Assembly (NCBI GenBank): GCA_016187485.1
Contig: JACPJO010000005.1
Location: 7,499 to 71,498, forward strand
DNA length: 64,000 nucleotides
Direction: 5' to 3'
DNA from: Candidatus Uhrbacteria bacterium
GTDB taxonomy: Bacteria > Patescibacteriota > Patescibacteriia > UBA9934 > UBA10169
A program made the translations under genes and the position numbers. Below the pieces are notes generated by a model. It searched no databases and was not told where the DNA came from. It worked only from the letters and a program-made list of their open reading frames with translations. Shown here in pieces: positions 9,626 to 47,000 of this stretch; position 1 is the first letter of the stretch; every line of letters starts with the position of its first letter.

Positions 9626-9629
9626 TCCT

Positions 9630-10112
9630 ATGGAGGGCCTGACTGAAAAAATCAGAGTCATTCTTGAAAAACTGGCAATCACACAGCCTCCTATTGATAT
9701 TGAAAAAGTGGCGGCTTACTTTGGAATCAATCTAGTTCCGTATGATAACTTCCCAGACAATGTTTCTGGCATGATTGTGCGCGACCAAAATGGAGACAAC
9801 GAAAATATCTATATTGGGTTTAACTCAAAACAAGCTAAGGTGAGACAACGCTTCACCGTAGCCCACGAGCTCGGTCATTTTCTTAGTGGTCATGACGACC
9901 TAAAAATCGTTGAAGATACCTTTGATAAGGATACGGTAAAAGAAAGAGAGGCAAACAGCCTGGCCGCCGAGTTATTGATGCCCAAAGATTTTCTTGTTGC
10001 TGACATGAAGCTCGGGAAATACGATATTCCGTCCTTGGCTAGCCGATACGGGGTGAGTGAGCAAGCTATGTCGATTTGTCTACTTAAATCCGGGCTCCTC
10101 TCCAAAGTTTAG
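9630..10112 (+). CDS. ImmA/IrrE-family zinc metallopeptidase (DUF955)
   Basis: HELGHFLSGH contains the HExxH motif, with a downstream ANSLAAELLMP helix. The gene directly follows the XRE gene; alternative start at 9594. Confidence 0.75.
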   Translation: MEGLTEKIRVILEKLAITQPPIDIEKVAAYFGINLVPYDNFPDNVSGMIVRDQNGDNENIYIGFNSKQAKVRQRFTVAHELGHFLSGHDDLKIVEDTFDKDTVKEREANSLAAELLMPKDFLVADMKLGKYDIPSLASRYGVSEQAMSICLLKSGLLSKV

Positions 10113-10242
10113 TTTTTGGTAGGCTACACATTCGTTGCTAGCTCACGAAACTTCCAAGAAACTTCTATTTTCTCCATGCTCACCCTGACCTGGCGGTAAA
10201 TCGGCTCCAGTTCGGTAAAAATGTAGAGTTCGGAGCCAGATA

Positions 10243-10280
10243 ACACACCTTGCGTTGCAAGGTGTGTTTTCTTTTTAGCG
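10243..10280 (+). terminator. Rho-independent terminator after the XRE-ImmA pair
   Basis: ACACACCTTGC-GT-TGCAAGGTGTGT is a perfect 11-bp stem followed by TTTTCTTTTT. Confidence 0.55.
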
Positions 10281-10319
10281 CATCTCGAATATACTTGTAA
10301 AAAACCATCCATTAGATTT

Positions 10320-10709
10320 ATGAACTACAAAGGCGTAATAATTGAAGAAAGTTTAGAAAATAAAGATATTCTCAAAGATGTCAAAATCTTAGAGACGAAA
10401 GTCGAGGAAGTTGTAGAAGAACATAAAACTCCTTGGATAAAACAATGGACTTTACACACTGTTGAAATTTCAGAAAATCAAGTTGCTAGTGTCGCGGAAA
10501 AAATCAGCAAAGCATTGGATTCAAAACATAACTGGTATGCGGATTTGAAAAATGAAACTCATCATTACATTATTTTCCGCGACAAAGTTTTTTACATAGA
10601 CCGAAAAAGTAAGGAACAATATGATGAAGCGAAACACTATGGCATTTCGCTCGGCATACCAGAATATCAAGTTGATTTTGCTCCTGACGATAAAGTTTGG
10701 GAAAGATAA
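10320..10709 (+). CDS. Hypothetical protein (129 aa) in a low-GC islet
   Basis: Clean ORF with strongly AT-rich codon usage unlike the flanking genes. It overlaps the start of the downstream hydrolase gene (10697), which suggests an operon. Confidence 0.5.
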   Translation: MNYKGVIIEESLENKDILKDVKILETKVEEVVEEHKTPWIKQWTLHTVEISENQVASVAEKISKALDSKHNWYADLKNETHHYIIFRDKVFYIDRKSKEQYDEAKHYGISLGIPEYQVDFAPDDKVWER

Positions 10710-11338
10710 TTATGGCTACAAAAAGTAAGATCCAAGTGCTATTAGTTCATGGCGGAATGACCTTCAAAAATGAGAAGGACTATTTACATTACCTAAAAAC
10801 CAAAAAAGTAACGACAAAGAAAAAGATTTCTTGGACGGGAGATTATTTAGAAAAAAGTTTAGGTAAAAGGTTTGAGATAATTTCGCCACGAATGCCTTTG
10901 CAGGATTTTGCGAAGTACAGAGATTGGAAGATATTTTTTGAGAGATATTTATCTCTTATCAAAAATAAATATATTTTGATCGGTTCGTCTTTGGGTGGAG
11001 TTTTCCTTGCAAAATATCTTTCTGAAAATAAACTTCGCAAAAAGGCCTTGTCGGTATATTTGGTTTGTCCGCCTTTCGACAATACATTGCCAGACGAAGA
11101 TTTGGTCGGTGGCTTCACGCTTGGTAGTGATTTGTCGTTGATTGAGAAGAACTGCAAAAATCTTCATTTACTATTTTCAAAAGACGACGATGTTGTGCCC
11201 GCCTCTCATGCCGATAAATACAAGCAGAAATTGAAAAACGCCCATGTTGTGATTTACAAGAGCAAGGGCGGGCATTTCAACATCATCAAATTTCCTGAAA
11301 TAGTTAAGATGATTTTTGCAGATATTAAAAGAAATTAG
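10697..11338 (+). CDS. Alpha/beta-fold serine hydrolase (YdeN/RBBP9-like esterase)
   Basis: Nucleophile elbow GSSLGG, plus a downstream acidic residue and His (KDDDVVP...GGHFNI) consistent with a Ser-Asp-His triad. Low GC. Confidence 0.6.
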   Translation: MGKIIMATKSKIQVLLVHGGMTFKNEKDYLHYLKTKKVTTKKKISWTGDYLEKSLGKRFEIISPRMPLQDFAKYRDWKIFFERYLSLIKNKYILIGSSLGGVFLAKYLSENKLRKKALSVYLVCPPFDNTLPDEDLVGGFTLGSDLSLIEKNCKNLHLLFSKDDDVVPASHADKYKQKLKNAHVVIYKSKGGHFNIIKFPEIVKMIFADIKRN

Positions 11339-11602
11339 CCGCCGATTTTTGCAAAAAAGAAAGCCGAAGCCCGCGCGGATTCCTCCCCAGACCCCTCCTC
11401 CGCGCGGGCGAGTCCGTCGCCCCGCCTCCTTTGCCCCAGAAAAATAGTGGCGGGGCGCATCGCTTCAGATTTCGCTTCTTAGATTTGTGTATCAGATTCG
11501 GCAAAATGATTTCAAAAGTTTGCGAAGGTTTTAATTCGGGAGCCACATAGAACCGACGTGTTCAAACGCGTCGGTTTTATGTTTGTGATAGACTATTTTC
11601 GT

Positions 11603-13937: not shown

Positions 13938-14237
13938 ATGATCAAAGACTTTGCGGCGTTTTTGCGAGAGTTCAACATTGTGTCGCTCGCGATCGGGTTT
14001 GTCATGGGAACCGCATCGACCTCGCTTGTTGGGTCGTTCGTCAAAGATATTCTGATGCCGATTGTGGAACCGTTGATGTCGGCGCGATCGTGGGAGACGG
14101 CCGTGCTTCATCTCGGCCCGATTAATATCGCTTACGGGGAGTTTCTCGCCGAGCTGATCAATTTTCTCATCCTCGCGCTTATCATTTTTGTCGTCGTGAA
14201 AAAGCTCTTGAAGATTGAGGTAGAGAGGAAGAAGTAG
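13938..14237 (+). CDS. mscL: Large-conductance mechanosensitive channel MscL
   Basis: MIKDFAAFLREFNIVSLAIGFVMGTA...FVKDILMPIV is the MscL signature. The start ATG at 13938 lies within a longer track ORF. Confidence 0.85.
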   Translation: MIKDFAAFLREFNIVSLAIGFVMGTASTSLVGSFVKDILMPIVEPLMSARSWETAVLHLGPINIAYGEFLAELINFLILALIIFVVVKKLLKIEVERKK

Positions 14238-14240
14238 GGT

Positions 14241-14792
14241 ATGCCTCGAACCAATAACATCGTGCGCGACGCGGGAATTGTAGCGATGAGTGTTTTGGTT
14301 GCCGTAGTACTGGCTCAAACAGGCACGCTAGAGGCTCTTCTTACAAGCACGCAAGGACGGATCATGCTTGGGAGCTTTCTTGCTGGCCTCTTTTTTGTTT
14401 CCATCTTCACTGTGGCTCCTGCATCCGTCATGCTTGTGGAGATGGCGCTTGCGAACTCGGTGTGGGAAGTTGCGCTCTTCGGGGGCTTAGGGTCGCTTGT
14501 GGGAGACCTTGTCATCTTCCGATTTATGAAAGACAGCGTGTCGTCGGATGTCCGCTGGCTTTTACGAAAGACAGGGCGTGAAAAAGTTTTGGCGCTTTTC
14601 GGCATCAAGCATGTGCGTTGGCTCATCCCGTTTCTCGGCGCTCTCGTCGTTATCTCTCCGTTTCCCGATGAGATCGGTCTTGCCATGATGGGACTCTCCA
14701 ACATGAAGACGCGATGGTTTGTACCGATCACCTTTGCGCTCGACTTTTTCGGCATCCTTCTTATTGGACTTGTTGCAAAGCACGTGTGGTAA
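14241..14792 (+). CDS. Integral membrane protein, hypothetical
   Basis: Multiple hydrophobic helices (about 5-6 predicted TM segments). No recognizable motif. Confidence 0.45.
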   Translation: MPRTNNIVRDAGIVAMSVLVAVVLAQTGTLEALLTSTQGRIMLGSFLAGLFFVSIFTVAPASVMLVEMALANSVWEVALFGGLGSLVGDLVIFRFMKDSVSSDVRWLLRKTGREKVLALFGIKHVRWLIPFLGALVVISPFPDEIGLAMMGLSNMKTRWFVPITFALDFFGILLIGLVAKHVW

Positions 14793-34515: not shown

Positions 34516-34536
34516 GGGGAGAATAAGAGAGGTATA

Positions 34537-34567
34537 AAAGTCGAAAGCGACCCCGTGGGGTCGCTAG
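34537..34567 (-). terminator. Rho-independent terminator of the 519-aa GC-rich gene; copy 1 of a 31-nt element repeated in inverted orientation at 46746-46776
   Basis: On the minus strand the transcript reads AGCGACCCC-ACG-GGGGTCGCT followed by UUCGACUUUUAU. It is identical over 31 nt to the hairpin after the 45233..46723 gene. Confidence 0.6.
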
Positions 34568-34614
34568 GTCCTCCTTCGCCTTGATGGGCTACGGAGGATG
34601 GAGAGAAGGAACGT

Positions 34615-36174
34615 TCAGTCGTTGGGATCCGTGAGCTTGCGCACCCGCATAGCGTGGGTGTCGAACGTGCAGGGCGCGTCCGCGAGCGGGTAGAAGCGCC
34701 AGCAGTCGCGCGCGACGGGCGGCGTATCGCGCGGGGGGAAGCCCGGCACGAGCACGTCGGTCCGCGCGGCGAGGAGCTGGCGGTCGATCTGGTCCTGGGG
34801 CCACTCGAGTTCGTAGCGGAGCGTCTGTCCGCTCTGCACGACCGTGGCCGTGTAGAGCTCTCGGTGCTTCGTGCGGCTGAAGCCATCGTAGGTGGGCTTC
34901 ACGAACTGCCAGCCGCACTCGATGACGCGCGACTGCAGGGCCTCGTAGAACCATGCCTGGCGCACGATGCTCTCGCGCGGCACGGTCTTGGTGCCCTCGT
35001 CTTCGCGCCCCTTCTGTGGCCTCACGGACTTGACGTAGCCGGTGCCCCCTTCCTCCATCTCGGCGGCCAGGATGTGGCGGTACAGGTAGGGGGCGTTCTC
35101 CGGCGTGAGGCGCCGGAGGAGGTTGCCGAGCAGCTGCTCGCACTCCCGTCCCCACGTGTTCCTGTGCATGTCGAGCAGCAGGTGGGTGGCGATCGTGTAG
35201 GACGAGTCGCACGCGGGCAGCGCGCGCAGGATGTCGTAGCGCACGCCGATCGGGAGGGCGCGGAGGCTCTCCGTGTCGACGTGCTTCGCCGTCATGTTCG
35301 GCTGCGACAGCGCACTCGTCGTCGCCTCGATCATGGGCAGGGCCCAGTCGAAGCCGACCCGGGCGAGCGCCATGAGCTCCTTGATGCCCTTGTTGTAGAA
35401 CGCGTTGTGGGGCGGAGGTGGCGGGTTGCCGGCCTGGAGGTGCGCCGCGAATGCCGTAGCGAGCCACCACCGGTGAACGAACGCCAGCGGAGCCCGCCGT
35501 GCGCACTCCGTGACCATCTTGCGGAAGTCGTTCACGTCCTCGAAGCAGGGCCAGAGGGAGGCGGCCCATCCATCGGAGGAGTCGAGGAACTTCCCGGCGA
35601 ACGAGCCATCCGTGTTCGTCGTGATGAGCTCCCACACGATCTCGCGCATCATCTGCTTGCCGTCCCGGTGGGTCAGGATCACGTCCGTGAGCCACGTCGG
35701 GTCGTGGGAGCGGCGGAGGATGTGCGTCCGCGCCGTCTCCACGCGCTCCTCGATCGGGAGCCAGGCGAAGAGGATCGGCAGCTCCTGCACGATCTCCGTC
35801 ATCTGGGTCCACGACGTGTCCGTCGTGAGAACCCGTGCGAGTGCCGCACGGTCTGCCTCGGGCAGGATCGTTCCGAGGTGCTCCAGACTCTGCAGGACCC
35901 AGCAGAGCCCGTGGGCCTGCGTGATGTCCTCGGGGAGGTTGCACTCGCGGTCGCGCTCGATCGCGGTCAGGATGTCCGCCAGCTTGAGCGTCCCCGTCTC
36001 GTCGCGAACCGTGAGGTCGGGGTGCAGCATGAAGCGCGCCTGGCGCGTCTTCTGTGCCTTCTTCTCCTTGATGGCCTTGTCGCGGGCCTGCTGGTACTCG
36101 AGGAAGCTGAACCCGCGATTTTCGAGATCCTTCCGGATTTCCTGCATCTCCTCACTGTTGAGCTCGATGTCCAT
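34615..36174 (-). CDS. Large hypothetical protein (519 aa) encoded in a GC-rich (foreign-looking) block
   Basis: Long ORF with balanced, protein-like composition. The overlapping long ORFs in other frames are Arg/Pro/Ala-rich high-GC artefacts. I recognise no catalytic motif. Confidence 0.55.
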   Translation of the reverse strand: MDIELNSEEMQEIRKDLENRGFSFLEYQQARDKAIKEKKAQKTRQARFMLHPDLTVRDETGTLKLADILTAIERDRECNLPEDITQAHGLCWVLQSLEHLGTILPEADRAALARVLTTDTSWTQMTEIVQELPILFAWLPIEERVETARTHILRRSHDPTWLTDVILTHRDGKQMMREIVWELITTNTDGSFAGKFLDSSDGWAASLWPCFEDVNDFRKMVTECARRAPLAFVHRWWLATAFAAHLQAGNPPPPPHNAFYNKGIKELMALARVGFDWALPMIEATTSALSQPNMTAKHVDTESLRALPIGVRYDILRALPACDSSYTIATHLLLDMHRNTWGRECEQLLGNLLRRLTPENAPYLYRHILAAEMEEGGTGYVKSVRPQKGREDEGTKTVPRESIVRQAWFYEALQSRVIECGWQFVKPTYDGFSRTKHRELYTATVVQSGQTLRYELEWPQDQIDRQLLAARTDVLVPGFPPRDTPPVARDCWRFYPLADAPCTFDTHAMRVRKLTDPND

Positions 36175-36196
36175 GGTCGGTCTGCCTTTCTGGTGC

Positions 36197-36252
36197 GAAA
36201 TGCACCTTTCAAGGCAGGGCCACCATCGGCCCTACCTTGAAAGGTGCATTTC
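36197..36252. promoter_or_regulatory. 56-nt near-perfect palindrome (25-bp arms, 1 mismatch, 6-nt spacer) upstream of the 519-aa gene
   Basis: GAAATGCACCTTTCAAGGCAGGGCC-ACCATC-GGCCCTACCTTGAAAGGTGCATTTC. No U-tract follows on either strand, so this is not a terminator. It lies in the divergent region between gene 34615..36174 and xth. Confidence 0.5.
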
Positions 36253-36443
36253 ACGCCTTCAGGGGGCCGACGTCCTACAATTTTACGGTGGACGTTGGAA
36301 GTAGGATCTAACTACATAACATGGGAATGTCCTGTTTTCTCCTCGGCTTGCTTGCCGAATGGAGGTGACAGAATACCAAAAAACGGTCGAAATGTCAATA
36401 CATAATGGAAGACTCCGTCCGTGATACAATTTCTGCAATATCT

Positions 36444-37247
36444 ATGCCAAAGCGCACGCGCACGATTATCTCTTGGAATGTCAACGGTATTCGCTCGGTC
36501 TTGCGGCAGGGTCTTTCGGATTTTATAAAAAAACACCATCCCGACATTCTCTGCCTACAAGAAACGAAGGCTGAGCAAGGCCAAGCCGTCGTAGATTTGC
36601 CGGACTATGAGGAGTATTGGAATAGTGCAAAGAAGAGAAAGGGATATTCTGGCACCGCGATTTTCTCCAAGCAAAAACCTCTCTCGGTTTCTTTTGATTT
36701 ACCTGTCAAAGGCGGGGTGCTTACGGACGAGTATGGGGACGCTAATGGGGAAGGGCGCGTGATCACGGCCGATTACGGAGACTTTTTTCTGGTCAACGTG
36801 TATACACCAAATGCAAAGCCGGACTTGGGACGTCTGGCGTACCGACATAAAGTTTGGGACCCGGCGTTTCTGAAATATCTTAAAGCCCTTGAAAAGAAAA
36901 AACCCGTGATTGCCACAGGCGATTTCAATGTGGCGCACGAGGAGATAGACATTGCGCGACCGAAAGAGAATGTGAAAAACGCCGGCTTTACTCCCGAAGA
37001 GCGCAAAGGGTTTGAGCGCATAGTGGAGGCGGGGTTCGTGGACACGTTCCGTCTGCTCCACCCAAACGAAAAAGATCGTTACACGTGGTGGGCGCGCTGG
37101 AGCAATGCCCGTGCGCGCAATGTCGGTTGGCGCATTGATTATGTTATCGTCTCGCCGGCGCTCAAGAGAAAAATTAAACGCGCGTTTATTCTTGACCATG
37201 TTATGGGCTCCGATCATTGCCCTGTGGGGGTTGATTTGCTAGGGTAG
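36444..37247 (+). CDS. xth: Exodeoxyribonuclease III (Xth, AP endonuclease)
   Basis: ISWNVNGIRS, LCLQETK, DFNVAHEEIDI, NVGWRIDYVIVS and SDHCPVGVDL are the catalytic motifs of the ExoIII family. Confidence 0.85.
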   Translation: MPKRTRTIISWNVNGIRSVLRQGLSDFIKKHHPDILCLQETKAEQGQAVVDLPDYEEYWNSAKKRKGYSGTAIFSKQKPLSVSFDLPVKGGVLTDEYGDANGEGRVITADYGDFFLVNVYTPNAKPDLGRLAYRHKVWDPAFLKYLKALEKKKPVIATGDFNVAHEEIDIARPKENVKNAGFTPEERKGFERIVEAGFVDTFRLLHPNEKDRYTWWARWSNARARNVGWRIDYVIVSPALKRKIKRAFILDHVMGSDHCPVGVDLLG

Positions 37248-37253
37248 CTCCGT

Positions 37254-38756
37254 ATGAACATCACTATCGTCAAAGGCAGACTGGAGGAACAAAAGGCCGA
37301 CCTTCTTGTGGTAAATGAATTCTCTGGTGTGGAGAAAACCGGCGGAGCGACGGGATCTGTTAATAAAGCGCTTGGGGGGCTTTTGGAGAAACTCATGAAG
37401 GAGGAGCAGTTTAATGGCGGACAGAGGGAGACGCTTCTAGTGCGGACGGGGGGTGTTATTCCCGGCTCACGGGTTCTTCTTGTTGGACTCGGTGAACGAA
37501 AAGATTTTTCTCTAGAAACCGTACGCGAGGTGAGCGCTGCTGCGTACAACACAGCGAAGAAACTTGGGGCGCGCCGCGTCGTCTCGATTCTTCACGGCGC
37601 AGGAGCAGGGAAGTTGTCGGCGCTTCTGTGTGCAAAGGCACAGACCGAAGGCGTACGGCTTGCCGAATATGAATTTGTTAAACGGAAAAAGGCACCAGAG
37701 AAAAAGACGCCGAAAGTAGAGTCCTGGACTATCGTCTCTTCGGATGCTGCTCATGTGCGTGCGGGGGCAAGGGGGGTGGGCGAAGGCGAACTTTCTGCCG
37801 AGGGAACGATCTTTGCGCGCGACCTTGTGAATGAGCCAGCGGGACAGATGACGCCAAGACATTTGGCGCTCGCGGCGCAAAACATCGCAAAGGTGAGCAA
37901 AGGAGCCGTTCGTATAAAAGTTTTTGAAGCAGGGCAGATCGAAAAGATGGGTATGGGGGGGGTTGCCGGCGTTGGTCAAGGATCTGTTCATCCGCCATAT
38001 TTTGTCCACCTTATCTACAAGCCACGCGGGGCAAAGAAAACGGTTGCGGTGGTGGGGAAGGGCATCACGTTTGACTCCGGTGGTCTTTCTCTCAAACCGG
38101 CCGACTACATGATGACGATGAAGTGCGACATGGCCGGTGCCGCGGCGGTGCTTGGGTTGTTCTCGGTGCTTACGCGGGTTGCTCCAAAGGTTACAGTGCA
38201 CGGGATTTTTGGCGCCTGTGAAAATATGCCGTCGGGAAACGCCATTCGACCGGGCGATGTACTCAAAGCGCTCAATGGAAAGACGATGGAGGTGTTGAAT
38301 ACGGATGCCGAGGGACGTTTGACGCTGGCCGACAGTCTTTCGTATGCGTCCAAATTGAAGCCCGACGCTCTTGTGGACCTTGCCACACTTACGGGTGCGT
38401 GCATGGCGGCACTTGGTGAAGAGATAACAGGGGTGATGGGGAACGACCACAAGTTGACAGGAGCAATATTGCAAGCGGCTGCCGCGGCTGGCGAAAAGAT
38501 GTGGGAGCTGCCACTTGAGAAGAGATACAAAGATCTCATCAAATCTGAAATTGCCGACGTAAAAAATATCGGGGGGAAATACGGCGGCGCCATTACCGCG
38601 GGTCTCTTCCTGCAAGAATTTGTTGACGCGGAAATTCCCTGGGTTCATCTAGACATTGCCGGTCCCGCGTTTGCCGAGCGGCCGGTAAATGCGTACACCC
38701 GTTATGGCGGCACCGGAGCCGGTGTAACAACACTCATCGAGTTCTTGAAAAAGTAG
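37254..38756 (+). CDS. pepA: Leucyl aminopeptidase (M17 family, PepA)
   Basis: NTDAEGRL signature. Metal-binding residues lie in VGKGITFDSGG and DMAGAAAV. Confidence 0.85.
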   Translation: MNITIVKGRLEEQKADLLVVNEFSGVEKTGGATGSVNKALGGLLEKLMKEEQFNGGQRETLLVRTGGVIPGSRVLLVGLGERKDFSLETVREVSAAAYNTAKKLGARRVVSILHGAGAGKLSALLCAKAQTEGVRLAEYEFVKRKKAPEKKTPKVESWTIVSSDAAHVRAGARGVGEGELSAEGTIFARDLVNEPAGQMTPRHLALAAQNIAKVSKGAVRIKVFEAGQIEKMGMGGVAGVGQGSVHPPYFVHLIYKPRGAKKTVAVVGKGITFDSGGLSLKPADYMMTMKCDMAGAAAVLGLFSVLTRVAPKVTVHGIFGACENMPSGNAIRPGDVLKALNGKTMEVLNTDAEGRLTLADSLSYASKLKPDALVDLATLTGACMAALGEEITGVMGNDHKLTGAILQAAAAAGEKMWELPLEKRYKDLIKSEIADVKNIGGKYGGAITAGLFLQEFVDAEIPWVHLDIAGPAFAERPVNAYTRYGGTGAGVTTLIEFLKK

Positions 38757-38803
38757 GCTCGGGCGTGTAACCGCTACGTCCACCTTATCTTCCTCGCTCG
38801 AGT

Positions 38804-39366
38804 CTATTTTCCAAGCGTTTGCTCACCCGGCTTCCAATCTACGGGACAGCGTTCGCCGGTTTGCAGCGCCGCAAGAACACGCAGGACCTCATCTACGGAT
38901 CGTCCGACGTCGAGATCGTTGTATGCGGCGTAGCGCAAGACTCCTTCGGGATCAATGATGAAGGTGCCACGAAGCGTGATGCCCTTACTGTGCACAAGAA
39001 CACCGTACGCGTCGCTCATCTCTTGCGTCATGTCCGAGAGCATGGGGAATTTGAGAGGCCCGATTTCTTTGAGCCACTGCTTGTGCGAATGCACGCTGTC
39101 GGTTGAGCAGCTGTACACGATTGTATTGAGCTTTTGAAAATCCGCAAAGCGCGTGGAGAACTGTGTGATCTCCGTGGGACAAATGAATGTGAAATCGAGC
39201 GGGTAGAAGAAAAGGACAACCCATTCACCACGGTGGCTTTTCAGGGGATAGGTGCGGAAGGTAACTCCGTCCGTATCTACTCCCTCTAGGGTAAAGTCTG
39301 GCGCCTGCTCTCCCACTTGCGCGTGTGCGCAGCAAAGGAAATCTTCGGTATTTTGGTCTATCATAG
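38804..39366 (-). CDS. Peroxiredoxin (AhpC/TSA family, 2-Cys type)
   Basis: FTFICPTE peroxidatic-Cys motif. The start is trimmed to MIDQNTEDF (188 aa); the track ORF extends to 39601. Confidence 0.85.
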
Positions 39367-39410
39367 GTAAACAGCATAGCAAAAAATAAGGCAATTTGGT
39401 AGAGTGACGC

Positions 39411-40433
39411 ATGACTATGCAGGGACGCGGAAGAATTTTTCTTGGGATTTTAGCGGTTTTTGCCGTCGTGCTTTTTATTGCAGAATATCGAGCGCGAACC
39501 GCAGGGCCTCGTATCGAGCCGTTTGCGCAAAGCGAAGGGTGGGGTATCCCGCGTGAGGAAGTGTATGACTCCGGCCTCTCGTCCTCGTCCATTCCGGCCA
39601 TTGACGCCCCCGCGTTTATTTCCCCAAGCGAAGCGGATATATTTTTGTATGATGAAGGCGAGGGTGTCTCCCTATCCCTGGGCGGCGAGACACAATTCTA
39701 TCCTTTCCAGATTCTTGTGTGGCACATGGTTGTGAACGACATGATTGCCGGTGTGCCCATTGTTGTTACCTACGATCCTCTTGTGGGAAGCGCGATGGTC
39801 TACGATCGCCGTGTGGAGGGCCGCACCCTCTTGTTTTCGGTGAGTGGAAAATTATGGAACTCAAACGTTCTCTTGCTTGATCGCGAGACGGGAAGCCTTT
39901 GGCCGCAAACAACAGGACGGGCGGTGAATGGGGAATTCCTTGATCGCGATCTTGCACCGATAGGATCGGAAATCGTCACCTGGAAAAAGTGGAAGGCACA
40001 ACGCACAACAGGACGCGTGCTCTCTAAAAACACCGGGGCTGTGCGTGACTATACGCGTAATCCTTATCTTGGCTACGAAGAAAATCGTTTAGTGTATTTC
40101 CCGCTTTCCCGTCGTGACATTCGTCTCCACCCAAAGGAACTCGTCTTTGGGTATACAGGACCGGAAGGCGAGACGAAAGCGTACCCGCGCGAGTATTTGG
40201 TGGAAGAGGGAAGTATCACCGACACGGTTCTCGGGCGCAAAGTTGTCATGACGTTTAACGAGAACACAGGTGTGCTTCGTGCGAGGGGAGAAGATGTGGC
40301 GGGCGTGGCAAGCGATGTATTTCTCCGTCCTATGTATTGGTTCGCATGGGCGGCGATCCATCCAGACACAGAGCTCTATGACCCGCTCGGAGAAAAACAG
40401 AAAGTGGAAAGTGAACAGCAAGAAGGAGAGTAG
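39411..40433 (+). CDS. Membrane-anchored/secreted protein, possibly DUF3179 family (hypothetical)
   Basis: N-terminal signal anchor (IFLGILAVFAVVLFI) and a conserved-looking core with WNSNVLLLDRETGSLWPQ. Family assignment is from memory only. Confidence 0.4.
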   Translation: MTMQGRGRIFLGILAVFAVVLFIAEYRARTAGPRIEPFAQSEGWGIPREEVYDSGLSSSSIPAIDAPAFISPSEADIFLYDEGEGVSLSLGGETQFYPFQILVWHMVVNDMIAGVPIVVTYDPLVGSAMVYDRRVEGRTLLFSVSGKLWNSNVLLLDRETGSLWPQTTGRAVNGEFLDRDLAPIGSEIVTWKKWKAQRTTGRVLSKNTGAVRDYTRNPYLGYEENRLVYFPLSRRDIRLHPKELVFGYTGPEGETKAYPREYLVEEGSITDTVLGRKVVMTFNENTGVLRARGEDVAGVASDVFLRPMYWFAWAAIHPDTELYDPLGEKQKVESEQQEGE

Positions 40434-40435
40434 CT

Positions 40436-41116
40436 ATGGGAACGCTCTTTGTCGTGGCGACGCCCATTGGGAACCTCCAGGATATTTCTGCGCGGGCGCG
40501 TGAGATTCTCGCGTCGGCCGATCTTGTGCTGTGCGAGGATACGCGCGTGACGGCAAAACTTCTTTCTGTGTACGACATCCACGTACGCACTGCCGCCCTG
40601 CATCAACATTCCACAGATGCGAAACACCAAGCGTATATCCGGCTGCTTGCCGAAGGAAAGACGCTCGCGCTTGTAAGCGACGCGGGAACACCAGCGATTT
40701 CCGACCCCGGCGGGAGGTTTGTAGAGGATGTTCTTCGCGCTCTTGGGGATGAAGCAAAGATCATTCCTATCCCCGGGCCGTCCGCAGTTACGGCAGTGTT
40801 AAGTGTCTCTGGATTTCCTGCAGACACCTTCACGTTTCTCGGTTTTCCCCCGCAGAAAAAGGGCCGAGAAGCTTTTTTCCGTTCGCTTGTTCACATCGAA
40901 CATACGGTAGTGTTTTACGAATCTATCCACCGTATTGTGAAGGCGCTCGCGTCTCTTTCGGCTCTTCTGCCGGAGCGCCAGATGGTGCTCTGCCGGGAGC
41001 TTACAAAACTGCACGAACATATCTATCGCGGGACGCCGGCGCAAGTGACAGACGCTCTTTTGGGTGATAGCATCAAAGGTGAGTGTGTGATCGTGCTTGC
41101 GCCCGCACGGTTTTAA
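40436..41116 (+). CDS. rsmI: 16S rRNA (cytidine1402-2'-O)-methyltransferase RsmI
   Basis: LFVVATPIGNLQDISARAREILASADLVLCEDTRVTAKLL is the tetrapyrrole-methylase-fold RsmI N-terminus. Confidence 0.85.
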   Translation: MGTLFVVATPIGNLQDISARAREILASADLVLCEDTRVTAKLLSVYDIHVRTAALHQHSTDAKHQAYIRLLAEGKTLALVSDAGTPAISDPGGRFVEDVLRALGDEAKIIPIPGPSAVTAVLSVSGFPADTFTFLGFPPQKKGREAFFRSLVHIEHTVVFYESIHRIVKALASLSALLPERQMVLCRELTKLHEHIYRGTPAQVTDALLGDSIKGECVIVLAPARF

Positions 41117-41117
41117 T

Positions 41118-42575
41118 ATGTCTCGTTTTTATCTCACGACAACTCTCCCCTACGTAAATGCCGATCCGCACATCGGATTCGCTCTTGAGATTGTGCAGGC
41201 GGATGTTGTGGCGCGCCTCCATCGCCAAAAGGGAGAGGAAGTTATTTTCAACACGGGCACAGACGAACATGGCCAGAAGATTTATCAAAAGGCTCTCGAA
41301 CAGGGGAAAGAGCCGCAGGCGTACTGTAATGAATATGCCGCAAAATTTGATCGGCTGAAGACGGCGCTTAACCTCTCCTACACGCATTTTATTCGTACGA
41401 CATCGCCAGACCATGTCGCGGCGGCACAGGAATTTTGGAGGCGTTGCGATGCGCACGGCGACATCTACAAAAAAAATTATCAGACAAAGTATTGCGTCGG
41501 GTGCGAATTGGAGAAACAAGACTCGGAGTTGACCGATGGCCGTTGCCCCGTTCATCCGAACCTTGCGCTTGAGCTGCGCGAGGAGGAAAATTATTTTTTC
41601 CGTTTTTCCAACTACCAGAAACCCCTCCTGGATCTCTATACGGCACATCCGGATTTTGTCGTGCCGGACTATCGGCTGACCGAAATCAAAAATTTCGTCG
41701 AGGCTGGGTTGCAGGATTTCAGCATCTCGCGACTAAAAGAGAAAATGCCGTGGGGAGTAAGCGTGCCGGGTGATGAAGCGCACGTGATGTATGTCTGGTT
41801 TGATGCGCTCATTAACTATATCTCTACGCTTGGCTGGCCCAAGGAGGGAAGTGATTTTGAAACCTTCTGGCCTGGGGTGCAGGTGGCGGGGAAGGACAAC
41901 CTTCGCCAACAGTCGGCAATGTGGCAGGCTATGTTGCTGTCGGCGGGGTTACCTCCATCCGAACAAATTTTCATACATGGTTTTATTACCGCGGATGGGG
42001 CGAAGATGAGTAAGTCGCTTGGAAATGTGGTGGATCCGTTTGCGATGGTCGAGCGTTATGGCACAGACGCCCTGCGGTACTATCTTCTGCGCGAGATTGT
42101 TTATGGGGCAGACGGGGATTTTTCGCTTTCACGGTTTGACGAACGATACAACGGTGATCTTGCGGATGAGCTTGGCAACTTGCTCCATCGTGTGCTCACC
42201 ATGACAGAGAAGTACGCAGAGGGGATTGCGCCTGCTCCCTCCGCTCAGGGAAAACAAGTTTCCGTGGACCGCGCCTATTTTGAGGAGCTCACTGACCAGT
42301 ATCGTTTCAGCGAAGCTCTCTCTCTGGTGTGGGATGTGGTGCGTATCGCCAATCAAGATATTGAGAACGCGAAACCGTGGGCGATGGCGAAAGAGGGGCG
42401 TTTCGATGAGGTGAAAGACGAGCTTGCGCACCTTTTGCATCTTCTCCGACAAATTGCTGACATGTTGGCTTCCTATTTGCCGGAGACGGCCGAACGAATG
42501 AAGCGCGCACTTGCCGAGCCCGGAAAACCAATAATGAAAGGGGAGCCGCTCTTCCCTAAAATGGAAACTCTATGA
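41118..42575 (+). CDS. metG: Methionyl-tRNA synthetase
   Basis: HIGH-type motif (PHIGFA), KMSKS motif (KMSKSLGNVVDP) and a zinc-knuckle CVGCELE...CPVHP. Confidence 0.9.
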   Translation: MSRFYLTTTLPYVNADPHIGFALEIVQADVVARLHRQKGEEVIFNTGTDEHGQKIYQKALEQGKEPQAYCNEYAAKFDRLKTALNLSYTHFIRTTSPDHVAAAQEFWRRCDAHGDIYKKNYQTKYCVGCELEKQDSELTDGRCPVHPNLALELREEENYFFRFSNYQKPLLDLYTAHPDFVVPDYRLTEIKNFVEAGLQDFSISRLKEKMPWGVSVPGDEAHVMYVWFDALINYISTLGWPKEGSDFETFWPGVQVAGKDNLRQQSAMWQAMLLSAGLPPSEQIFIHGFITADGAKMSKSLGNVVDPFAMVERYGTDALRYYLLREIVYGADGDFSLSRFDERYNGDLADELGNLLHRVLTMTEKYAEGIAPAPSAQGKQVSVDRAYFEELTDQYRFSEALSLVWDVVRIANQDIENAKPWAMAKEGRFDEVKDELAHLLHLLRQIADMLASYLPETAERMKRALAEPGKPIMKGEPLFPKMETL

Positions 42576-43060
42576 CCTTTTCTCTCATGGACCTTATTCT
42601 TCTTGTCGTGCTCGGTCTCTTCACACTTGCCGGGCTCTACTTTGGGCTCTTCCATACGCTTGGAAGTCTCGTGGGCGCCGTCTTCTCCATCTTTGCTACC
42701 GGCTATGCCATGCCCTACGTGAGCAGTTGGCTTTCTGCGTGGATTCCGCTCTCGCCCCCGTTTACGGTTGTGCTGTTTGTCGTGCTTTTCCTTATCATCA
42801 GCCGATTGGTGGGATTTGTTTTCTGGATTCTCGATGAGACGCTTGGCATTGTGACGCGTCTCCCGTTTCTCTCTTCGGTTAATCATCTTTTGGGCGGCGT
42901 GTTTGGTTTTGTGGAAGGTGTTATTGCGCTTGGCGTGCTCATCTATGTGATCAACACGTACATCCCTTCGGGAGCGTTCCTCTCGGCCATAGCGGCTTCG
43001 CCAATTGCCGGATGGATTGTCGCCCTCACCGGCTGGCTGACCCCGTTGTTACCGTTTTAA
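42572..43060 (+). CDS. CvpA-family membrane protein (tentative)
   Basis: Four hydrophobic helices with the N-terminal pattern MDLILLVVLGLFTLAGLYFGLF. 162 aa. Confidence 0.45.
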   Translation: MTFSLMDLILLVVLGLFTLAGLYFGLFHTLGSLVGAVFSIFATGYAMPYVSSWLSAWIPLSPPFTVVLFVVLFLIISRLVGFVFWILDETLGIVTRLPFLSSVNHLLGGVFGFVEGVIALGVLIYVINTYIPSGAFLSAIAASPIAGWIVALTGWLTPLLPF

Positions 43061-43099
43061 CAACGAGGCAGTCTGCTGGCAGGACTCCGAGCATCATCT

Positions 43100-43984
43100 A
43101 TGACTCTTTTCGATTCCCACTGCCACGTCCATTTTCGTGCTTATAAGGAGGACAGGGATGCTGTTATTAAGCGTGCAACCGAAGAGGGCGTTTTCATGCT
43201 TACCGTGGGGACGCAGGCGGATACGTCGCGTGAAGCGGTGCGTGTGGCTAACGCGCATGAAGGTGTGTGGGCGACGGTGGGGCTTCACCCCAATCACACG
43301 ACGGCACAAGAGTTTGTAGACGAGAGTGAGGAGGACACCATAGCGAAAGTCAAAACGCGCACAGAAGTTTTTGACGCGGAAATGTATCGTCCGCTTGCGC
43401 AAGATCCAAAGTGCGTGGCGATTGGGGAGTGCGGACTCGACTTTTATCGCATCCCCGAACATCTTGATCGAACGGACGTCATACGAACGCAAGAAGAGAT
43501 GCTGCGGCGGCAGTTTGATTTGGCGACCGAACTTGGGAAGCCCGTGGTCATCCATTGCCGCGACGCGCACAAAGAACAGGCAGATATAATTGAAGAGTAT
43601 GTCAAAAAGGGAAAGCTGGGTGCGCGGGGTGTGATCCATTGTTTTACGGGTACGAAGGAAGATGCCCTTCGGTATCTTGCGCTTGGGTTTTATATTTCGT
43701 TTTCGGGGGTCGTGACGTTTCCGCCACGTAAAGAGGGGTCTGACCCCTCCGGGGGTCAGACCCCTCTTGCGCCGCTTGCGCTTGTGGCGCGTGATATTCC
43801 GGAGAATCGAATTCTCATCGAAACTGACGCCCCCTATTTAGCGCCTATTCCCATGCGGGGTAAGCGCAATGAGCCGGCGTATGTGCGTCATACAGCAGAA
43901 TTTTTGGCAAAGTTGCGTGGAGTGACTTTGGAGGAGTTTGCAAAGGTGACAACAGAGAACACGAGGAGAGTATTTGGCATTTGA
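43100..43984 (+). CDS. tatD: TatD-family metal-dependent DNase/hydrolase, carrying an in-frame palindromic insertion
   Basis: N-terminal FDSHCHVHF and internal IETDAPYLAP motifs. A 38-nt perfect palindrome (43731-43768) encodes an extra KEGSDPSGGQTPL loop. Confidence 0.85.
   Translation: MTLFDSHCHVHFRAYKEDRDAVIKRATEEGVFMLTVGTQADTSREAVRVANAHEGVWATVGLHPNHTTAQEFVDESEEDTIAKVKTRTEVFDAEMYRPLAQDPKCVAIGECGLDFYRIPEHLDRTDVIRTQEEMLRRQFDLATELGKPVVIHCRDAHKEQADIIEEYVKKGKLGARGVIHCFTGTKEDALRYLALGFYISFSGVVTFPPRKEGSDPSGGQTPLAPLALVARDIPENRILIETDAPYLAPIPMRGKRNEPAYVRHTAEFLAKLRGVTLEEFAKVTTENTRRVFGI
43731..43768. repeat. Perfect 38-nt palindrome made of two GGGGTC(T/A)GACCCC units, inserted in-frame in tatD
   Basis: AAGAGGGGTCTGACCCC-TCCG-GGGGTCAGACCCCTCTT. 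The same 13-mer GGGGTCAGACCCC recurs at 23488-23500, and a related GGGTC-N3-GACCC motif occurs at 3004-3021. Confidence 0.7.
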
Positions 43985-44030
43985 AATTCGAAAGCCAGGC
44001 ACGAGGCCTGGCTAGGAAGAAAAGAACGAA

Positions 44031-45104
44031 CTAGAGCTTGTGGCCGAGGCGGCGCATGGTGGCGTGGATGTCGCTCACCACGAGCACGGCGTCGGCACGC
44101 GTGAGGTGCCACACGCGCTCGCCGTCCCAGTGGCGAAGTGGTCGCCGGATTGCCGAATCCTCGTTGAGTAGATCGGTGTAGAGTGCGCGCAGTCGGGGCT
44201 CGGACTTCTCTCCCTCGAATCGCTTGATGCGCAGTTTGAGGCGCCGAGCGAGCTCCGCCGACATCTCCTCGCGACTCTTCCGTGCCGCGACGAGCCGGAG
44301 GCTCGTATACACGCCGTCGTCTCGTCCCTGCTCCCACGCTGCGATGAGCTCCGGTTCCGGACTCACGCGGATGTAGTTGGCGGGGAGCGTGCGCGGCGGC
44401 GGTTGGGCGGCCTCGGTGCGCGGTGTGGCCTCTGCCGAAGGCGGTTCTGCCGCCTGCCGCTGCGCCTGCTCAATGTCCGCCGCCGTGACACCGCTTCCCG
44501 CCTGCACGACTTGTGCGCGCAGGCGCTCTTCGCGAATGCGCGCCCGGGAGCTTTCCGCCGCCGCCGTCTCTTCCGCCGTCTTCACGAGCTCCATCTTCTG
44601 CGTTCTAGCGTAGGCGGTGAAGCCATCGCGCACAGAGGAGTTCCAGAAGGCGCTGTCGTCGGGCCAGTCGGGCGCATCGTTGGGGGACGTGTAGCCGAGT
44701 TGTCGCGCCATCGCGATCACCTCGTCGTACTGATCGTCTCCCTCGGGCGCGATCTGCATCGGCTCGTCGGGGTTGCGGGAGGAACTGTGTCGGTACTTGT
44801 CGAGCGCCTTGAGTCCGTAGTAGATCGCCTCGCGCAGACTCTCGTCCACGCCGACCTTTTCGAGCAAGGTCTTCCATTGCTCGAGCGCGCCAGGCTTCTC
44901 CACGCTCTTCGTGAAGGTCCCCCGAGGGAGGAACCTCACGGCGCCCTCGACGAACGGGGCGAATTCGTAGCTGCCGTCCTTCTCTCGGTCTACGTAGTTG
45001 TTCCCCCCCTCCATCTGACGTGCGTCGGCGAAGGGGAGGGCGACGAGGTCCAGGTACTCCTGAGGATTCAGTTCAGAAAGGCTGATAGCCATGGGGTACT
45101 CCAC
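44031..45104 (-). CDS. Hypothetical protein (357 aa) in a GC-rich foreign block
   Basis: Long ORF with normal composition, a central Ala/Glu/Gln/Pro-rich linker and a charged C-terminal domain. Divergent from the 45233 gene. Confidence 0.5.
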   Translation of the reverse strand: MEYPMAISLSELNPQEYLDLVALPFADARQMEGGNNYVDREKDGSYEFAPFVEGAVRFLPRGTFTKSVEKPGALEQWKTLLEKVGVDESLREAIYYGLKALDKYRHSSSRNPDEPMQIAPEGDDQYDEVIAMARQLGYTSPNDAPDWPDDSAFWNSSVRDGFTAYARTQKMELVKTAEETAAAESSRARIREERLRAQVVQAGSGVTAADIEQAQRQAAEPPSAEATPRTEAAQPPPRTLPANYIRVSPEPELIAAWEQGRDDGVYTSLRLVAARKSREEMSAELARRLKLRIKRFEGEKSEPRLRALYTDLLNEDSAIRRPLRHWDGERVWHLTRADAVLVVSDIHATMRRLGHKL

Positions 45105-45158
45105 TTCGTATAGGTTAGGAAAAGGCCGAAACGCCTCAACTTAGCAAAAAAACCTGTC

Positions 45159-45178
45159 GCTGTCAATGCGTTGACAGC
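45159..45178. promoter_or_regulatory. Palindromic operator candidate overlapping a TTGACA -35 box between divergent GC-rich genes
   Basis: GCTGTCAA-TGCG-TTGACAGC is a perfect 8-bp inverted repeat. A CTGTCG/CTGTCA direct repeat lies immediately upstream. Confidence 0.45.
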
Positions 45179-45232
45179 AGCAGACTTTTCTGCTAGGTTA
45201 AGCCCTTAGTTTGCGGCGATCCTGCCGCGAGC

Positions 45233-46723
45233 TTGGGCCGTCCAAAGACGGACGGCAAGTTCCTTGCAAGATGTTGGGCAATCCCGCCCTGTGTACGGCG
45301 CCGTGTGGCGCAGAAAGTGAGAGAGGCCATGCCTCGTCCCCGTAAGGCTCTGCCTGCAGAGCTCCGGCCCGCCATTCCGGGCAAACCGGTCAATCTTCTT
45401 CCCGACAAGTACCGCCGGAACCCCCTCCAGTTCGCCCGCGAGGAGATCGACATCGCGCGCAACAAGGGGGAAGTGCCCGACAACGATGCCGCTTTCCAGA
45501 CCCAGATCATCGAGGAGGACGAACGGCGGTGGCGGTCGCGCGAGCTGCCCGCCATCGCGGGGTACGTGAACCGGATGTACGCGCGCGGAACGTTCGTGGA
45601 CCCCGACGACTTCATGATCGTCTGGGGGCTCTGGAACCAGCACACCCACAGCTTCCGGCTCTCGCACGGCGACCCGGCGGTCACGAACGTTCTCACTGCC
45701 CACAACCAGGGCATGGCCCGCCCCATCACCGATGCGTTCCGCCCCATCCACGAGAAGGCGGTTCCGGTCCCGTTGGCGCTCCTCGCCTTCGAGAAGCGGG
45801 AGATGGGCGAGGACGTCCCGGCGGGCGTCGAGACGTCGGTGTACGTCTACGTCTGCATGCCGGCCAATCTCGAGGCATCGGTGAAAGACGGAAACTTCAC
45901 CGACGACGTGAGCGTGGGCGACACCCAGGTCTACACCACGGATCGCCAGGCAGTGCACCGCCGGAAGGAGGGCAATTTCCTCTTCCGGCCGAACAGCGTG
46001 TCCAAGCACCCCCGCAAGCGCTTCGTCGCCTTCCATCCCGTCACGAAGAAGCCGATCTACCTCGCTGTGATCCCGCAGCGCTTCCTGCGCCGTGGCAAAG
46101 AGGGCGAGGAAGGCTTCCAGCCCGGGCAGCCCTGCCCGGTGGACATGGACGAGTTCGCGGACGGCTACCAGGCCCAGGTCATGGACGAAGGTGCGGTGGC
46201 CACGGACGAGCCGGCGGAAGAGGAAGTCAAGAAGATCCTCGACCGCATCGCGCACGGAGGTGCCGGCGGGCGCAAGGCCAGCAGGCAGGGCGAGTTCGAC
46301 TTCGACGGCCGCGTCTGGAACGCGCTCTCGATCCTCGGCATCAAGGAGGGTGAAGCGCCGACGGCAGAGAGCATCGGGAAGGCGCGCAGGCGCTACAGTC
46401 CGAGGCTCTTCGATGCTCGAAGCGCCATGGGCCTCCACAGCGCCCTCGTCCTGCTCGGCATGCCCGAGAGCGATCGCACCGCGTACATGAAGGACAAGCA
46501 CTTCGAGATCTTCAAAGCCGCGGTCGGTGTGGCCGAGGGGATGCTGCCGAAGGCCGAGCCGGTGGAGGAGACGGAAGGCGACAAGCCCGCCGACTCGCCA
46601 CCCGCAACAAGCGAAGCGTCCAGCGCGACGACCTCGCCCGCCGACACGACGGACGACCCCGCCATGTCCCAGCCCGCCGCGACCCGCAAGGCCCCGCGCG
46701 TGGAACCCGGCACCGACGACTGA
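45233..46723 (+). CDS. Large hypothetical protein (up to 496 aa) in a GC-rich foreign block, with acidic Ser/Thr/Pro-rich C-terminal tail
   Basis: Long ORF whose overlapping antisense ORFs show high-GC artefact composition. The true start is possibly the Met at about 45329 (MPRPRKAL). Stop TGA at 46721-46723. Confidence 0.5.
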   Translation: MGRPKTDGKFLARCWAIPPCVRRRVAQKVREAMPRPRKALPAELRPAIPGKPVNLLPDKYRRNPLQFAREEIDIARNKGEVPDNDAAFQTQIIEEDERRWRSRELPAIAGYVNRMYARGTFVDPDDFMIVWGLWNQHTHSFRLSHGDPAVTNVLTAHNQGMARPITDAFRPIHEKAVPVPLALLAFEKREMGEDVPAGVETSVYVYVCMPANLEASVKDGNFTDDVSVGDTQVYTTDRQAVHRRKEGNFLFRPNSVSKHPRKRFVAFHPVTKKPIYLAVIPQRFLRRGKEGEEGFQPGQPCPVDMDEFADGYQAQVMDEGAVATDEPAEEEVKKILDRIAHGGAGGRKASRQGEFDFDGRVWNALSILGIKEGEAPTAESIGKARRRYSPRLFDARSAMGLHSALVLLGMPESDRTAYMKDKHFEIFKAAVGVAEGMLPKAEPVEETEGDKPADSPPATSEASSATTSPADTTDDPAMSQPAATRKAPRVEPGTDD

Positions 46724-46745
46724 CAGACCAATTCGTTCTTTCTCT

Positions 46746-46776
46746 CTAGCGACCCCACGGGGTCGCTTTCGACTTT
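46746..46776 (+). terminator. Rho-independent terminator; copy 2 (inverted) of the 31-nt element at 34537-34567
   Basis: AGCGACCCC-ACG-GGGGTCGCT followed by TTCGACTTTTTTG. Starts 23 nt after the stop of gene 45233..46723. Confidence 0.65.
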
Positions 46777-47000
46777 TTTGTATCTTTCCTTTATTCCCCC
46801 TCGAAGGTATGTAAGGATAATCTAAGGCGTGTCGCAAGGACGGGGCCCCCATAACCCCGCAGCCCAGCTCAGCTGGGCGCAGCGAGTCATCGAGCGAGGA
46901 GGATGGGGTGGACGTAGCGGTTACACGCCGTCTTGTTACCTGTTCAAAACTTCCCTTGACCTTTAGTGTCTTTCCCTATATACTTTCGGCGCTTTTCGAT

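Follow-up and report, generated by a model that had tools for sequence, protein, structure and literature searches.

A GC-Rich Orphan Gene among Housekeeping Genes

The 64-kb window of Candidatus Uhrbacteria bacterium DNA analyzed here (contig JACPJO010000005.1) contains a GC-rich block, block I, that carries one orphan gene encoding a 519-aa protein on the minus strand (Table 1). Between positions 34500 and 36150, the GC content in 300-nt windows is 0.64–0.70, versus 0.52–0.54 on one side and 0.46–0.49 on the other, confirming the sharp jump to about 65% described in an earlier note on this DNA. For the block as a whole, GC is 0.67 versus 0.52 in the host, and GC at third codon positions (GC3) is 0.93 versus 0.55. 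The sole comparable region elsewhere in the window is block II, at ~43.9–46.9 kb. Block I is flanked by ordinary genes encoding an HhH-GPD glycosylase, a DUF5671 protein, exonuclease III (Xth), and leucyl aminopeptidase PepA, as expected from the earlier description of a housekeeping neighborhood.

The minus-strand 519-aa open reading frame (ORF) is the real coding frame. GC at its first, second, and third codon positions (GC1, GC2, and GC3) is 0.64, 0.45, and 0.93, a periodicity that identifies it as coding, and remote homologues align with it at the protein level; the earlier choice of this ORF as the protein-like one was therefore correct. Host genes have GC3 values of 0.53–0.60 with similar GC1 and GC2, so the GC excess lies almost wholly in synonymous third positions. 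ORFs of at least 80 aa are present in five of the six frames of the block, and the statement that all six frames hold long ORFs was slightly overstated. The only fully open antisense frame is the codon-aligned one (a 528-aa ORF), which is open because TTA, CTA, and TCA codons are absent from the 519-aa gene. An antisense overlapping gene was ruled out, as this frame is not conserved in the homologous loci described below (five stops in L007 and one in L009); its translation is a low-complexity sequence rich in Arg, Gly, and Pro.

Several open frames could also mean that the GC-rich stretch is non-coding or encodes the antisense ORF, and a chimeric assembly would be another kind of artefact. 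The outer junction, toward DUF5671, falls on a 32-nt repeat where all k=31 Logan assemblies break, which would be compatible with a chimera. Six k=31 contigs carrying the 519-aa gene end at 34538–34545, and the block II contigs end at 46772–46777; they stop at the repeat because they derive from k=31 graphs. The gene–Xth junction, by contrast, is present in six independent Logan assemblies from different sequencing runs with 100% identity to the window. One contig of 12,238 nt equals window positions 34538–46775 exactly, and eight further contigs, all 100% identical, span block II and its inner neighbors. In total, 15 Logan contigs from at least 10 sequencing runs match the window without a difference and link both GC-rich blocks to the host genes between them; all sampled contigs represent one clonal sequence with no strain variation relative to the window. 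With respect to the misassembly raised as a concern earlier, a chimera is excluded on the inner side, whereas support for the outer junction comes only from the original assembly and from the gene order conserved in L009. The L007 homologue was found in the same context in two different assemblies. Taken with the codon periodicity, the protein-level homologues, and the stops in the antisense frame, these data make an artefact a negligible prospect.

Table 1. Coordinates of the features discussed (positions in the window unless another locus is named)
Feature	Coordinates	Strand	Remarks
Putative terminator module	34536..34567	-	Stem-loop 34546-34565, then UUCGACUUUU; copy of the 32-nt exact repeat
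First 3' hairpin	34569..34598	-	CCUCCG...GGAGG stem with inner stem
519-aa orphan coding sequence	34615..36174	-	NCBI HYW18_02955, "hypothetical protein", Candidatus Uhrbacteria bacterium, 303-kb contig
Probable Shine-Dalgarno sequence	36185..36190	-	GAAAGG, 10 nt upstream of ATG, read from sequence
Leader hairpin	36192..36257	-	Arms 36192-36221 / 36228-36257; 27 consecutive pairs, 6-nt loop
Sigma-70-type promoter-like site	36370..36398	-	TTGACA-17-TATTCT, TG before -10; 10/12 consensus matches
Block II gene 1, orphan	44031..45104	-	Up to 357 aa, HYW18_03000 (annotated 302 aa), GC3 0.82; divergent from the 464-aa gene
Block II divergent intergenic region	45105-45328		Back-to-back promoters TTGACA-17-TAGGTT and TTGACA-17-TAAGTT
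Palindrome	45158..45179	.	CGCTGTCAATGCGTTGACAGCA (also given as CTGTCAATGCGTTGACAG); each arm is the perfect TTGACA -35 box of one promoter
Block II gene 2, orphan	45329..46723	+	464 aa, HYW18_03005, GC3 0.88; same promoter style and putative terminator as the 519-aa gene
Second 32-nt copy of the putative terminator module	46746..46777	+	Inverted orientation, 3' of the 464-aa gene
Raised-GC3 ORFs in L007, including an HTH_3 gene	886-1146 (+), 89-724 (-), 14116-14415 (+), 8238-9581 (-)		
Raised-GC3 ORFs at other xth loci	L070 1346-2221, 2823-3506; L071 853-1443; L065 10423-10926		
Intron-split tRNA	3297-3637	+	Intron 3338-3589; exons TCCGGGGTAGCTCAGCGGCAGAGCAGTGGACTGTG... and ...TCCATTGGTCGTGGGTTCGATCCCCACCCCCGGAGCCA
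40-nt inverted repeat	38762-38801 / 46890-46929		Core GGCGTGTAACCGCTACGTCCACC exact at both
Inverted repeat within TatD coding sequence	43731-43768	+	AAGAGGGGTCTGACCCC / GGGGTCAGACCCCTCTT, 4-nt spacer
AT-rich island	~9300-11500		Small ORFs include 9281-9625
Large genes with the AT-rich island downstream	4077-5996, 6007-8703	-	

The Orphan Protein and Its Family

The earlier view of the 519-aa product as an unrecognized protein holds. Scans of Pfam, PHROGs, PADLOC, and NCBIfam gave no family at E ≤ 0.1, and sequence searches of the PDB gave no match. In a word-based search of 5.8 billion proteins the query returned itself alone, as did the 464-aa and 357-aa proteins of block II, for which the same four family collections yielded nothing usable (sub-threshold Nif11 and phrog_5827 matches only, for the 357-aa protein). 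No paralogy links the three GC-rich genes of the window (E ≥ 0.027 in BLASTP of the 519-aa protein versus the other two). A full HMMER scan of 1.84 billion representative proteins found three remote clusters, P0004 (365 aa, E = 7e-26, 36% identity over residues 191–430), P0005 (515 aa, E = 3e-17, 27% identity), and P0006 (543 aa, E = 3e-5, 27% identity); neither P0005 nor P0006 has a PADLOC or NCBIfam family. The protein therefore represents a new and very rare family, with about four clusters among the representatives searched. Conserved positions in its alignment include Trp, Gly, and Arg, and its most conserved motif, VRxAWFYxAL..R..ECGW, lies toward the C-terminus. The Trp content of the family is 2.9–4.4%, versus 1.0% in host proteins.

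Inspection by eye revealed no obvious signal peptide or membrane segment. An AlphaFold2 model built from a seven-sequence alignment (predicted local distance difference test score, pLDDT, 65; predicted template modeling score, pTM, 0.56) comprises an N-terminal helical region, alpha-helical repeats at residues ~60–370, a disordered linker at 375–399, and a small alpha/beta C-terminal domain. The protein is thus predicted to be an alpha-solenoid joined to a small alpha/beta domain, for which no matching family or fold was found. Judging by this predicted fold, our guess is that it is a binding or scaffold protein rather than an enzyme.

Two Relatives Share the Locus and All Share the GC3 Excess

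All three remote relatives could be placed on contigs, and these loci (L007, L009, and L010) were compared with the window. The contigs apparently belong to the candidate phyla radiation (CPR); the context of L007 is CPR-like, with genes for PNPase and S15, several genes resembling type IV secretion system (T4SS) pilins, and a helix-turn-helix (HTH) gene. At each locus the gene is richer in GC than its flanks, at 0.57–0.58 versus 0.34–0.45 in L007, 0.64–0.66 versus 0.39–0.46 in L009, and 0.61–0.65 versus 0.41–0.46 in L010. The GC3 of the gene is 0.93 in the window, where that of its neighbors is ~0.55, and 0.70 in L007, where the neighbors have 0.25–0.35. The corresponding values are 0.87 versus 0.41 in L009 and 0.90 versus 0.49 in L010, the background in each of these two being one partial neighboring gene. 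On a logit scale, the excess is ~2.4 in the window, ~2.3 in L009, ~2.2 in L010, and ~1.7 in L007. Such a near-constant offset would be produced by a constant directional force added to the mutation bias of each host.

The position of the gene is shared as well. L009 has a DUF5671 gene convergent with the homologue and 46% identical to its counterpart in the window (E = 3e-77), and L010 has an xth gene divergent from the homologue and 65% identical to that of the window. Together, they reproduce the window order, DUF5671 > < gene, xth >. The orphan homologues themselves are only 24% (L009) and 33% (L010) identical, versus 46–65% for the flanking proteins. These identities indicate that the 519-aa gene evolves much faster than the genes around it. 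At this depth synonymous sites are saturated many times over, so a donor composition could not have survived, and the excess must be maintained in place. Moreover, the purge of A/T-ending third positions recurs in the relatives whatever their background GC, which again argues for maintenance by a directional force. A genome-contig scan of 80 more distant CPR xth loci (56–66% Xth identity) found neither the family gene nor this gene order, and the family therefore appears to be confined to a narrow lineage. No empty DUF5671–xth site was found among relatives sharing the window order, and scans of metagenome contigs with family alignment A2 and with the terminator gave no matches.

L007 contains other ORFs of raised GC3. 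Three without Pfam hits have values of 0.75, 0.47, and 0.51, and an HTH_3 gene has 0.42, against a background of 0.25–0.35; GC3-elevated genes may be a recurring class in these genomes. At unrelated CPR xth loci, ORFs were seen with GC3 values 0.2–0.3 above the locus median, some of which may be ordinary, highly conserved genes.

Codon Usage and the Question of a Foreign Origin

In the 519-aa gene, AAG, CAG, TTC, TAC, CAC, and ATC are used at ~100% and ACG at 77%, and the same purge of A/T-ending codons is seen in L009, L010, and the two genes of block II. Among its G/C-ending codons, the 519-aa gene keeps to the rather unusual preferences of the host (CTC>CTG, ACG>ACC, GTG>GTC, and CGC>CGG; r = 0.83 versus 22 host genes). 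The combined fraction of Gly, Ala, Arg, and Pro (GARP) in the 519-aa protein is 0.279, versus 0.277 in the host. In four of six GC-rich genes, namely the three of the window and that of L007, the first 20 codons are less GC3-rich than the remainder. The general codon bias of highly expressed genes was ruled out as an explanation by the ordinary GC3 of the window ATP-synthase genes (0.50–0.62) and of rpsO and pnp in L007 (0.29 and 0.31); the three GC-rich genes of the window are discrete outliers.

The earlier note took block I to be a foreign block, which would mean a recent acquisition from a high-GC donor. An acquisition of this kind, from a phage, a plasmid, an actinobacterial-type genome, or an unsampled mobile pool, with repeated insertion or allelic replacement at one site, would account for the sharp compositional boundary, for a moron-like autonomous unit with its own promoter and terminator, and for the orphan state of all three GC-rich genes. 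The L007 homologue adjoins the T4SS-pilin-like cluster and the HTH gene, which could be a mobile region. The dinucleotide signature is also deviant, with delta* values of 0.12–0.20 in the three GC-rich genes (0.198 for the 519-aa block) versus 0.055 ± 0.016 in host chunks, whose maximum is 0.092. Such values are expected of foreign DNA, but extreme codon bias would produce them too. Yet the locus is occupied in three genomes, with flanks 46–65% and the gene 24–33% identical, over which time a donor signature would have decayed. The GC3 excess tracks the host background, is synonymous, and is present in every relative, and codon preferences are host-like. The window and L009 have homologous leaders, including the hairpin and the ribosome-binding site (RBS) region, so that the whole unit appears to have been inherited.

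Searches for a donor were likewise negative. No homologue in a high-GC context was found among the 1.84 billion representatives, and none in viral, phage, or plasmid collections: scans of viral contigs with the family alignment, each of the three proteins, and the terminator 25-mer gave no matches, nor did tblastn against phage and plasmid records. In or beside the block, there is no integrase or transposase Pfam match, flanking direct repeats are absent, and ARAGORN called no tRNA in the window. The proposal of a recent foreign origin is therefore not supported, and the suggested phage, plasmid, or high-GC donor was not found. We regard horizontal acquisition as quite improbable and the gene as very probably resident rather than recently foreign. 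An ancient acquisition is possible, but the present composition is not a leftover donor signature.

Putative Promoter, Leader Hairpin, and mRNA Structure

The promoter-like site upstream of the 519-aa gene is the best-scoring sigma-70-like site between 32 and 48.5 kb. Its layout (perfect TTGACA, T-run spacer, and TAnnnT) is common to all six genes examined, which are the 519-aa gene, the two block II genes, and the homologues in L007, L009, and L010. These features point to a strong sigma-70-type promoter and a leader of ~185 nt. With the 519-aa ORF and two 3' hairpins, the second of which would be the terminator, they would form a self-contained transcription unit.

The leader contains a long hairpin. 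The region 36175–36290 (minus strand) folds with a free energy (dG) of −68.8 kcal/mol (z = −10.4), and in this fold the bases just 5' of the AUG, some of them in the probable Shine-Dalgarno (SD) sequence, pair with sequence 5' of the hairpin as an outer closing helix. The SD region aligns with the L009 leader (GAAGGAG), and a similar CAGAAAG precedes the ATG of the 464-aa block II gene. The hairpin and its closing helix would thereby occlude the ribosome-binding region. L009 has a homologous leader hairpin of 30 bp (z = −8.4), and its RBS-proximal sequence can be aligned too. At 22 pairs in shared columns, the window and L009 show 13 identical pairs, one one-sided change, eight compensatory double changes, and no broken pair. 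Rfam has no family for this hairpin; only miRNA-precursor models were hit, at 23–38 bits versus thresholds of 87–107, as generic long-hairpin matches.

Structure extends beyond the leader. The 3' region 34520–34614 (minus strand) folds with a dG of −31.3 kcal/mol (z = −3.7), and the homologues also have GC-rich hairpins between the stop codon and the terminator. Within the coding sequence (CDS), the mean folding energy of 150-nt windows was compared with that of synonymous-codon shuffles that keep the protein and its codon usage. The resulting z values are −3.4 for the 519-aa gene, −3.7 for L009, −1.8 for L010, and −5.9 for L007, whereas 17 host control genes have a mean of −0.2, a standard deviation of ~1.0, and a minimum of −1.8. 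The excess structure is distributed along the gene, with no single element responsible.

Putative Terminator, 32-nt Repeat, and Block II

A perfect 9-bp-stem terminator sharing 31 nt with block II had been described 3' of the gene. Its palindrome arms are indeed 9 nt long, but they fold into a stem of 8 bp, mostly G-C, that is capped by a CACG tetraloop and lies ~50 nt past the stop codon, and UUCGACUUUU after the stem is an interrupted U-tract. A simple consensus scan for terminators passed over this stem and, at the block II copy, listed only a weaker, overlapping stem. The identity with block II is real and covers 32 nt rather than 31: the two copies are 100% identical and inverted, with weaker similarity for ~20 nt further. 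Elsewhere in the window the hairpin motif is absent, and 0 occurrences are expected by chance.

In block II, two orphan genes diverge from a short intergenic region with back-to-back promoters. The palindrome in this region, in which both −35 boxes lie, looks like a shared operator of the two promoters. The inverted 32-nt copies bracket exactly 12.2 kb of housekeeping genes, with one GC-rich gene reading outward at each end, and recombination between them could invert this segment and leave the gene–terminator pairings unchanged. A composite transposon or invertible segment bounded by the repeats was ruled out as the origin of the arrangement, as the DUF5671–gene–xth order is ancestral.

What Maintains the Composition

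Two explanations of the constant offset compete with selection on the transcript. GC-biased gene conversion, or another local nucleotide bias, would act through a recombination hot spot, with allelic exchange via the conserved flanks and heteroduplex repair favoring G/C. A fixed bias over host mutation bias should give a near-equal logit GC3 offset, as seen in the four genomes, and the much faster evolution of the gene relative to its flanks, the raised GC in the L009 3' untranslated region and partly in the leaders, and the GC1 and GC2 values above those of neighbors in L007 and L009 are all consistent with it. A fast-evolving protein under such a bias should, however, shift its GARP fraction, and that of the window protein is unshifted. 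In the window, the GC rise starts and ends almost at the CDS boundaries, and the less GC-rich first codons in four of six genes point to mRNA selection. Gene conversion would also leave the excess folding over synonymous shuffles unexplained. Furthermore, reported effects of bacterial gene conversion on GC3 amount to a few percentage points, not ~40. We consider gene conversion unlikely as the cause.

Alternatively, the three GC3-rich genes could be a regulon written in G/C-ending codons, with translation tied to, or independent of, part of the tRNA pool. If, for example, no wobble or U34-modified tRNAs were needed, translation would continue under stress that leaves them depleted, cleaved, or hypomodified. 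The concept of codon-biased stress regulons is well established. The near-total use of G/C-ending codons in the 519-aa gene, L009, L010, and the block II genes agrees with this idea, as does the lack of a continuum between the three genes and the rest, and their common promoter style and terminator suggest co-regulation. Selection-driven codon bias is documented in vertically inherited gene transfer agent (GTA) genes (PMC9765227). The conserved leader hairpin and the excess mRNA structure would have no explanation under codon gating, which we judge improbable. Gene conversion and codon gating explain the constant offset about equally well, and both leave the RNA features unexplained.

The reading that we favor, tentatively and with somewhat less than even confidence, is that block I holds an orphan gene that is resident in CPR bacteria of the Uhrbacteria type, specific to their lineage, and fast-evolving, and whose high GC3 is maintained in place, probably through selection on mRNA structure. 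The excess coding structure, the conserved leader helix, and the 3' hairpins together lead us to prefer selection for a base-paired transcript. RNA-level selection as such is a possible cause of the GC3 excess, which we put forward with reserve. The transcript would be made from a strong promoter and be translationally silent through its leader, and selection would favor heavy base pairing that resists single-strand-specific RNases and Rho. Release could occur once the leader hairpin is melted or processed, RNase III being one candidate enzyme.

Several observations weigh against this reading. The family was found in only four genomes, the L007 homologue lies outside the DUF5671/xth context, and the GC3 backgrounds of L009 and L010 come from one partial gene each. 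The long leader hairpin is present in only two of the four loci, those of L010 and L007 being shorter. Excess coding structure is weak in L010 (z = −1.8), and the block II genes lack it (z = −0.4 and −1.5) despite their GC3 bias. The deviant delta* values described above are also what foreign DNA would be expected to show. GC1 and GC2 are somewhat above those of neighbors in L007 and L009, and GC stays high for ~180 nt beyond the stop codon in L009; both fit a nucleotide-level force such as biased gene conversion equally well. Confidence in the structure model is only moderate (pLDDT 65 from seven sequences).

Atypical GC and codon usage are routinely taken as evidence of horizontal transfer. 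Here, one orphan gene carries a GC3 excess of about +0.4 over four host backgrounds at a locus conserved in three of four genomes, and it therefore offers a clean counter-example in which composition is a maintained trait. Gene regulation in ultra-small symbiotic bacteria is almost unexplored. If transcript selection is the cause, the gene would provide a testable case of mRNA-level design of a whole CDS in such bacteria; if biased gene conversion is the cause, it would be an unusually strong bacterial example.

A broader and more speculative idea, to which we give little weight, is that some CPR bacteria keep a discrete class of orphans in a vertically inherited, "GC3-saturated" coding regime. 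Its features would be strong native promoters, RBS-masking hairpins of 27–30 bp, purged A/T-ending codons, over-folded coding regions, and stacked 3' hairpins. If true, this would amount to a dedicated mechanism for long-lived, translationally silent mRNAs, resistant to RNases and Rho and released when needed, and such mRNAs might serve dormancy or host-cell attachment. In a bolder version, the transcripts or genes would be adapted for use inside a high-GC partner organism. To our knowledge, a gene-specific, conserved compositional regime of this kind is undescribed in bacteria.

Other Features of the Window

A tRNA gene is split, within its anticodon loop or directly beside it, by a group I intron (Rfam RF00028, 74.8 bits, E = 4e-17). 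This intron-split tRNA is the only tRNA of the window, and since ARAGORN reported none, it was missed by standard calling. A 40-nt inverted repeat, 93% complementary, has copies immediately behind pepA and directly in front of the atpB promoter; possibly, it is a further shared element resembling a terminator or a repetitive extragenic palindromic (REP) sequence. Within the TatD CDS, a perfect 17-bp inverted repeat encodes a short protein segment, ...GSDPSGGQTPLAP..., and resembles an in-frame insertion of a hairpin element. An AT-rich island with GC of 0.37–0.41 versus ~0.52, and GC3 down to 0.29, lies downstream of two large minus-strand genes; its small ORFs include one that resembles an XRE-type HTH protein by eye. 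As a candidate for acquired DNA, this island is more conventional than either GC-rich block.

Comparison with Known Systems

No description of GC3-rich orphan genes in CPR bacteria was found in the literature, and block I is best placed by comparison with better-known arrangements. It resembles a genomic islet or phage moron in its compositional contrast, its own promoter and terminator, its orphan product, and its site between unrelated housekeeping genes. Unlike these, it has syntenic relatives with the same GC3 excess and host-like codons, and it is without mobility genes, attachment-site-like repeats, PHROG or viral homologues, and a candidate donor.

Hairpin leaders that gate translation or stability include those of lambda N and Escherichia coli adhE, which are processed by RNase III, and the 5' stabilizer of ompA. 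The block I leader is similar in having a long, near-perfect helix just 5' of the SD sequence, a closing helix on the RBS, and compensatory changes. It differs in that its helix has no Rfam family and occurs in only two of the four family loci. For the predicted fold of the 519-aa protein, the nearest named class is that of the alpha-solenoid repeat proteins (HEAT/ARM, PPR, PUF, and CID-like).

The RcGTA-type genes of Alphaproteobacteria are vertically inherited and have selection-driven codon bias (Kogay and Zhaxybayeva 2022, PMC9765227). Like block I on the reading favored here, they are a vertical gene set whose codon usage departs from the genome norm through selection and not through recent transfer. 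The block I protein resembles GTA or phage proteins neither in sequence nor in fold, and the bias described here is far larger (~+0.4 in GC3), concerns single orphan genes, and occurs in CPR bacteria. With these differences, the GTA genes come closest among the documented cases in which selection drives the codon bias of vertically inherited genes.

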